A stretch of DNA of 64,000 bases from NCBI RefSeq assembly GCF_056746865.1, contig NZ_CM163382.1, one strand, 5' to 3'. Shown here one piece after another: positions 42,520 through 42,858 of this stretch. The notes under the pieces are model-generated. The model saw only the letters and a program-made list of their open reading frames with translations. It did no database searches and was not told the origin of the DNA. A program made the translations under genes and the position numbers. How positions within the stretch are numbered: position 1 is the stretch's first letter; every line of letters starts with the position of its first letter.

Positions 42520-42678
42520 AACGTTTTACCTTACCTGGTTGAACCGTTGTTATTTTGGGCGATATGTTATGTAAATTGGTCAACCATTGTTGCGATGAAT
42601 GTCACATCCTCTGATCAATAACCATCGATTACCCTTTGCTGCAATTTGCAGCAACAACCATGAGAGTGAAATTCTTGT

Positions 42679-42696
42679 GATGTGGTTAACCAATTT
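42679..42696. promoter_or_regulatory. UxuR/ExuR-type operator palindrome (core TGGTTAACCA at 42683-42692) in the gntP-uxuA intergenic region, followed by TTGACA at 42708-42713
   Basis: Perfect 10-bp palindrome flanked by A/T residues, about 160 bp upstream of uxuA; a -35-like hexamer lies just downstream. Confidence 0.55.
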
Positions 42697-42858
42697 CAGA
42701 ATTCGGGTTGACATGTCTTACCAAAAGGTAGAACTTATACGCCATCTCATCCGATGCAACGCCACGGCTGCGGTCTGGTTGTTCATCCGGATACCTAAAC
42801 AACTCCAGGGTTCCGCGTCTCTTTGCTGTGGAACCCACTATGTGAAAGAGGAAAAATC

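Follow-up and report, generated by a model that had tools for sequence, protein, structure and literature searches.

The 64-kb window, which is the whole stretch of 64,000 nucleotides that was analysed, contains the divergent genes gntP, encoding a fructuronate transporter, and uxuA, encoding mannonate dehydratase, the ATG of the latter being located at 42859 on the plus strand. The gene order is fimH-gntP / uxuA-uxuB-uxuR, as annotated in a record of identical DNA. The spacer between the two start codons is the gntP/uxuA spacer of E. coli K-12 MG1655, base for base (window position x corresponds to x + 4,508,777 in NC_000913.3), and the 339-bp region was found in 5,404 of 5,426 complete E. 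coli genomes. The initial annotation of this DNA was right in taking the spacer for the control region of the divergent gntP and uxuA genes, which is known to be governed by CRP and UxuR/ExuR. The three strings singled out there, i.e., the palindrome TGGTTAACCA, a TTGACA hexamer and a separate 9-1-9 inverted repeat, are all present (Table 1). The use of hexuronates and fructuronate supports gut colonisation by E. coli, and the gntP/uxuAB region has been treated as a fully explained switch operated by CRP and UxuR/ExuR.

For comparative analysis, the window was aligned with 15 orthologous spacers, which come from three other Escherichia lineages, ten Citrobacter, Klebsiella spallanzanii and one MAG. 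A two-module layout is conserved across this 16-sequence alignment, in which the boxes, the -10 and the -35 elements are invariant or nearly so, and the control region may be described as two mirror-image modules, one for each promoter. Substitution among the four Escherichia lineages was assessed by counting variable columns and comparing them, by a binomial test, with the neutral rate of 43%; the counts are given with the features in Table 1.

Table 1. Features of the gntP-uxuA control region and variable alignment columns among four Escherichia lineages (P, binomial probability of as few variable columns or fewer at the neutral rate)
Feature	Position	Strand	Sequence and remarks	Variable columns
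gntP CDS, fructuronate transporter	41176-42519	-	start codon 42519-42517; ORF list and RefSeq annotation of identical DNA	
gntP-uxuA spacer	42520-42858		339 bp, between divergent ATGs	
Predicted gntP -10	42564-42569	-	TAACAT (plus-strand ATGTTA); invariant in 16 aligned regions	
Operator O1 (UxuR box)	42574-42590		AAATTGGTCAACCATTG; core TGGTCAACCA at 42577-42586; not in the initial annotation	1/17, P=0.0009
CRP site 1	42591-42606		TGCGATGAATGTCACA; centre 42598.5, -41.5 from predicted gntP start	2/16, P=0.009
9-1-9 palindrome	42636-42654		TTGCTGCAA-T-TTGCAGCAA; perfect; from sequence and repeat search	3/19, P=0.011
CRP-like site 2	42676-42691		TGTGATGTGGTTAACC; centre 42683.5, about -60.5 from predicted uxuA start; overlaps O2	2/21 together with O2, P=0.0009
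Operator O2 (UxuR box)	42679-42696		ATGTGGTTAACCAATTTC; core TGGTTAACCA at 42683-42692; palindrome of the initial annotation	see CRP-like site 2
uxuA core promoter block	42705-42745	+	invariant GGTTGACATG (-35 TTGACA at 42708-42713) through GAAyTTATrCGCCAT	
uxuA 5' leader	42746-42858	+	two predicted hairpins	
Spacer on both sides of the palindrome				21/50, neutral
Four-fold degenerate sites of gntP and uxuA				189/436 (43%), neutral reference

A TGGT-N2-ACCA core within AT-rich flanks, by which UxuR/ExuR-type operators were recognized, is found in both O2 (tgTGGTTAACCAATTT) and O1 (AAATTGGTCAACCAttg), with AAAT/ATTT flanks around the core in each case. The earlier assignment of TGGTTAACCA to this operator class is supported by its retention from Escherichia to Citrobacter and Klebsiella, by the right half of O2, ACCAATTT, which is the same as that of the operator AAATTGGTATACCAATTT validated in a UxuR biosensor (PMC8092373), and by genomic SELEX, in which purified UxuR selects the gntP/uxuA spacer at a resolution of the spacer and not of the single box (PMC5934670). 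That assignment was right but incomplete, as a second UxuR box (O1), the CRP site at 42591-42606 and the CRP-like site at 42676-42691 had all been overlooked. The left half of O1 is identical to the left half, AAATTGGT, of the validated operator (PMC8092373). Of the 16 aligned regions, which cover Escherichia, Citrobacter, K. spallanzanii and the MAG, 14 have the exact O1 core, two Citrobacter sequences having a right half that ends in AACCT, and 15 have the exact O2 core. Within the window, the core TGGTNNACCA occurs three times (1.03 expected), and all three copies are located in uxu control DNA (42577, 42683 and, upstream of uxuR, 45630). UxuR-type boxes were also observed upstream of uxuR, uidR and uidA, the one upstream of uidR being identical to the O2 box and having the same right flank.

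The gntP module would consist of CRP site 1, followed after 4 bp by O1 and, seven bases further on, by the TAACAT hexamer. CRP site 1 has one mismatch to the TGTGA-N6-TCACA consensus, is conserved in the alignment and qualifies as a CRP site; the exact 16-mer was reported under the gntP/uxuA CRP ChIP-seq peak of ETEC H10407 (PMC4287617). Its centre is 29.5 bp from the -10 hexamer, which is class II spacing. The gntP promoter may thus be a class II CRP promoter that starts near 42557 and is occupied by the UxuR repressor at -24.5. The same order of elements (CRP site, 4 nt, box, 8 nt, TAACAT) was found upstream of Edwardsiella gntP, where no uxuA is adjacent and the UxuR-type box is at the same distance from the gene. 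A scan of 42400-42950 for the sigma-70 consensus detected neither promoter, which is consistent with weak CRP-dependent promoters, and the probable starts of gntP (near 42557) and uxuA (near 42744) were deduced from the conserved geometry.

In the uxuA module, the CRP-like site would be overlapped by the O2 box TGTGGTTAACCAATTT and followed by a perfect -35 element, and the predicted start would place the O2 box near -56.5. CRP-like site 2 has two mismatches to the consensus, and its GTGA half is kept in most of the aligned sequences. Multiple CRP sites have been reported in the gntP/uxuA spacer (Shimada 2011; PMC3105977), and TGTGATGTGGTTAACC is plausibly one of them. Within the promoter block, no more than two of the 38 columns at 42708-42745 differ between the four Escherichia lineages, and the block is near-invariant across genera. 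The TTGACA hexamer had previously been noted, correctly, as following the operator, whereas its role as the invariant -35 element of uxuA had been left out. The weak -10 element of uxuA is in keeping with dependence on CRP. The -35 element lies within an imperfect palindrome, GGTTGACATGTCTTACC (42705-42730), which is conserved across genera and was also detected in several of the Citrobacter regions; a further operator overlapping the -35, perhaps for ExuR, is one conceivable role. Downstream, the fold of 42744-42870 has a free energy of -38.1 kcal/mol (z = -1.7), and approximately 80 nt of the uxuA leader are missing in the C. freundii complex and present in Citrobacter sp. Cu233, K. spallanzanii and the MAG. 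Genomic SELEX with RpoH holoenzyme gave a peak with a score of 5.0 in the gntP/uxuA spacer (PMC5493296). Inspection of the spacer by eye revealed no convincing sigma-32 promoter.

The cores of O1 and O2 are 106 bp apart, or approximately 10 helical turns. This spacing stays within 104-106 bp in 13 of the 16 regions of the alignment; the outliers that have two exact cores (159 and 219 bp) are still near integral numbers of turns. Such preservation suggests that repression may be cooperative or involve a loop. The arrangement resembles the gal (OE/OI, about 114 bp) and lac loops in that a single repressor has two operators, separated by about 10 turns, with CRP sites and a spacer between them; as in those systems, the operator spacing is conserved and the sequence of the spacer is not. 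On the other hand, the two operators here serve two divergent promoters instead of one, and UxuR would have to form the loop. Whatever the function of the 9-1-9 palindrome, which has no counterpart in the gal and lac systems, a practical gain is a corrected map with two UxuR operators in helical phase, each with its own CRP site.

The palindrome is located between the two modules, in a spacer that otherwise evolves neutrally. Its full sequence, TTGCTGCAATTTGCAGCAA, contains neither GGT nor ACC and is symmetric about a single central base. The two arms are small palindromes in their own right, of the form TTGC-W-GCAA, which allows the element to be seen alternatively as a pair of 9-bp palindromes that are 10 bp, or one helical turn, apart. 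It does not belong to the family of UxuR/ExuR operators, from which it differs in the odd central base and the TTGC-W-GCAA arms, and the initial annotation was right to treat it as a different motif. In the repeat search, it was the only inverted repeat of such quality in the 339-bp region. Perfect 9-nt inverted repeats with one fixed spacing are expected 0.24 times per 64 kb, compared with two that are present; over spacings of 0-10, approximately 2.7 are expected by chance in the window, and therefore the palindrome alone is not decisive. What makes it more than a chance occurrence is its position inside the control region together with its conservation. The centre of the palindrome (42645) would lie at -88 from the predicted gntP start and at -99 from the predicted uxuA start. 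It is 63.5 bp (6.05 turns) from the centre of O1 and 42.5 bp (4.05 turns) from that of O2; these nearly whole numbers of turns would place the palindrome on the same face of the DNA as both operators.

Absence from other E. coli, which the initial annotation had named as refuting its proposal, was not observed: an unaltered copy of the palindrome occurs in at least 5,280 of 5,404 genomes (at least 97.7%), a count based on two 30-nt queries, which represent two common alleles of the left flank and require a 28-nt exact word, and which matched 4,193 and 1,087 genomes. In 12 sampled non-K-12 alleles, changes were observed in the flanks only (42630, 42634, 42660, 42661, 42668, a 1-nt indel near 42673, and 42697) and none inside the 19-mer. 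The palindrome is intact in Escherichia sp. MOD1-EC7003. In E. albertii (2851-2889 of the aligned sequence L003), one change leaves a G·T pair, and the arms are extended to a 13-bp stem; here the right flank reads AGAGT in place of CAACC, an en-bloc change that makes it exactly complementary to the left flank. This change looks like a template-switch (quasi-palindrome) mutation. Escherichia strain E69 has two non-compensatory changes and no hairpin; its sequence was considered and rejected as an E. coli allele, being found in no RefSeq E. coli genome, with a best match of 85.9% identity. The spacers of Citrobacter, K. spallanzanii and the MAG lack the palindrome and have unrelated sequence of similar length in its place. 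The palindrome is a so far uncharacterised element that is specific to Escherichia and apparently constrained.

With regard to this constraint, the palindrome is on the level of CRP site 1, the site supported by ChIP-seq, while the spacer on both sides varies at the neutral rate (Table 1). Substitution below the neutral rate, measured over 19 columns in four related lineages, is the main argument that the palindrome has a function in Escherichia. The 21 bp immediately to its right (42655-42675) contain 11 variable columns, for which at least 16 events are required in the four Escherichia lineages; this high variability may result from complex en-bloc changes beside the palindrome.

Several known types of element were compared with the palindrome. 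An intrinsic terminator or attenuator was ruled out, as no terminator-like site is present in 42400-42950 and no T-run accompanies the palindrome, whose flanks read CAACAACC on one strand and AGGGTAAT on its complement. Rfam covariance models gave no match in 42300-43000, which includes the palindrome and the leaders, even at E<=10. Small ORFs across the palindrome were rejected as well, in view of a stop codon in E. albertii and the loss of the ATG in both E69 and E. albertii. A dispersed repeat (REP/BIME, ERIC or MITE-like) was also dismissed, with 61-nt and 30-nt queries matching a median of one place per genome, and the 64-kb window contains no second copy with up to three mismatches. No palindrome family was found in a scan of viral sequences, in which the single match is a chance occurrence inside a coding sequence. 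A metagenome scan returned only E. coli copies and unrelated low-complexity sequence, the W/N pattern being too loose to be informative. Among the latter sequences are contigs with 36-nt tandem units containing TTGCAGCAAGTTGCTGCAA (L146, 2645-2699; L196, 3508-3562; L125; L198) and contigs with 10-nt tandem arrays of TTGCTGCAAC or TTGCAGCAAG (L115, L142 and L144), all unrelated to the E. coli element.

Known regulators of the same or related pathways were also examined. Upstream of uidA, a palindrome, CTGTGTGCAACACAG, adjoins a UxuR box and is probably the operator of UidR, a TetR-family protein that has no known target besides uidA; the gntP-uxuA palindrome differs from CTGTGTGCAACACAG, and the uid locus has no match to the 19-mer within three mismatches, so UidR was rejected as its regulator. 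An ExuR-specific box was rejected too, as the boxes in the exuT-uxaC region are different ones and no inverted repeat there matches. This divergent region of MG1655 contains TGCAAATTGC (L097, 5029-5038), which is the core of the palindrome read on the minus strand; the probability of a chance match is approximately 0.015 in the 482-bp region, or approximately 0.05 when the other hexuronate control regions inspected are allowed for. The motifs of NtrC, Cra, LexA, FNR, PutA (GTTGCA) and MarR-type proteins and the T-N11-A box of LysR-type regulators are poor fits, and the sequence of the palindrome was not found printed in the literature searched. The operators of CytR, which consist of inverted TGCAA/TTGCA half-sites between CRP sites, are similar in that TGCAA-T-TTGCA forms the middle of the palindrome, between two CRP-type sites. 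They differ in that the half-sites are here separated by 1 bp, whereas the usual spacing is approximately 4 bp, and in that the CRP centres are 85 bp apart and not approximately 52 bp; gntP and uxuA are not known to be CytR targets. The resemblance to CytR half-sites, like that to the Fis core discussed below, is weak.

We tentatively favour the view, in line with the other regulator suggested in the initial annotation, that the palindrome serves in Escherichia alone as an operator, to which a further DNA-binding protein of symmetric build would bind; this interpretation is quite possible although short of probable. The bound protein would be a dimer or a dimer of dimers that acts from about -90 and modulates the UxuR complex or the CRP-dependent promoters, either one of them or both. 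It is rather doubtful, though conceivable, that this operator belongs to an Escherichia regulator that adds a further signal to fructuronate uptake and mannonate dehydration, and maybe also acts at exuT-uxaC. If a protein does bind, the palindrome would represent a genus-specific input to a textbook regulon and a target for one of the remaining uncharacterised regulators of E. coli. However, no known E. coli motif fits the palindrome, and the element is dispensable in some lineages, having decayed in E69 and having no counterpart in Citrobacter, Klebsiella and the MAG. In addition, template switching of the kind observed in E. albertii could create or extend a palindrome that has no function. 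The last point leads to the main rival, a serious one even if we regard it as somewhat unlikely, according to which the palindrome is a functionless quasi-palindrome that was made and extended by replication template switching in an unconstrained spacer and looks conserved because the sample is small. The misfit to known motifs, the absence outside Escherichia and the decay in E69 are just as expected under this explanation, as are the neutral rate of the surrounding spacer and the number of perfect 9-nt repeats that chance alone would supply. Quasi-palindromes are reportedly hotspots of template-switch mutation in E. coli (Ripley; Lovett), and the en-bloc conversion of the E. albertii flank, a classic signature of this process, is the footprint such hotspots are expected to leave, which makes a mutational origin and extension of the palindrome plausible. 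What the mechanism accounts for is origin and extension, and not a substitution rate below the neutral one: correction of one arm by the other would not slow substitution and should leave paired double changes, none of which was seen. The low variability of the 19-mer, on a par with that of the ChIP-supported CRP site, and the 12 sampled E. coli alleles that vary in the flanks and never inside it also speak against a functionless element. If it were functionless nevertheless, the E. albertii and E. coli alleles would provide a clean natural example of the extension of a quasi-palindrome by template switching.

Two further explanations involve the shape of the DNA and of a transcript. The palindrome might be an architectural element, such as a bend, a cruciform or a Fis- or HU-like site, that is situated near the apex of an O1-O2 loop and aids joint repression. 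The preserved operator spacing, including the nearly integral turns of the outliers, and the phasing of the palindrome with both operators would suit this role, and single-stranded DNA of the palindrome folds with -8.1 kcal/mol (z = -4.3). Fis cores have the form G-N13-C with an AT-rich centre, and the 15-bp core GCTGCAATTTGCAGC, with G/C at -7/+7 and an AT-rich centre, would resemble such a core; with so little specificity in the pattern, 64 kb of DNA should hold of the order of 100 matches on each strand. Moreover, Citrobacter keeps the same operator spacing without a palindrome, showing that the loop would need none, the 9-bp arms are short for cruciform extrusion, and tetramerisation of UxuR or looping at this locus is hypothetical. 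An architectural role is thus unlikely in our view. The least likely rival, and a very improbable one, is that the palindrome forms an RNA hairpin, affecting stability, processing or translation, in a long gntP leader whose transcription would begin at a distal promoter close to that of uxuA. The hairpin is stable on both strands (plus strand, -10.4 kcal/mol, z = -4.3; minus strand, -11.9 kcal/mol, z = -2.4), the single change in E. albertii still allows G·U pairing in plus-strand RNA, and a TATAAG hexamer is present on the minus strand (42739-42734) in the conserved block. Nevertheless, this hexamer is accompanied by neither a usable -35 element nor a TG extension, and the uxuA core promoter already accounts for the block. 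In the regions scanned, neither a promoter nor a terminator was called and no Rfam model matched, no compensatory changes of paired bases were observed, the changes in E69 break the pairing on both strands, and the fold of a 101-nt minus-strand context is not better than that of shuffled sequence (z = -0.4). The geometry of CRP at -41.5 and the -10 hexamer also points to a gntP start near 42557, downstream of the palindrome. The suggestion of the initial annotation that the palindrome forms a hairpin in the gntP leader is accordingly not supported by its probable position, approximately 80 bp upstream of the predicted gntP start and also upstream of the uxuA promoter. On the predicted start sites, the palindrome appears to lie outside any transcript or promoter, a location that had been named beforehand as speaking against the proposal, and it is this placement outside both predicted transcripts that disfavours an RNA hairpin.

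The neighbouring parts of the locus provided some additional observations. The other perfect 9-nt inverted repeat of the window, GAGCCTGCCATTGGCAGGCTC (41145-41165, with the 9-1-9 repeat at 41146-41164), is located between gntP and fimH, just past the gntP stop codon, and is presumably the gntP terminator. The uxuB-uxuR spacer (45620-45765) contains a UxuR box, ATTTGGTTGACCAGTTT (core 45630-45639), and an apparent REP element (about 45725-45765). In E. coli strain O18 (NZ_CP007275.1), only a 108-nt partial pseudogene, and no gntP, is annotated to the left of the gntP-uxuA spacer, which suggests that gntP has been disrupted or deleted in this strain while the spacer and uxuA have been retained.
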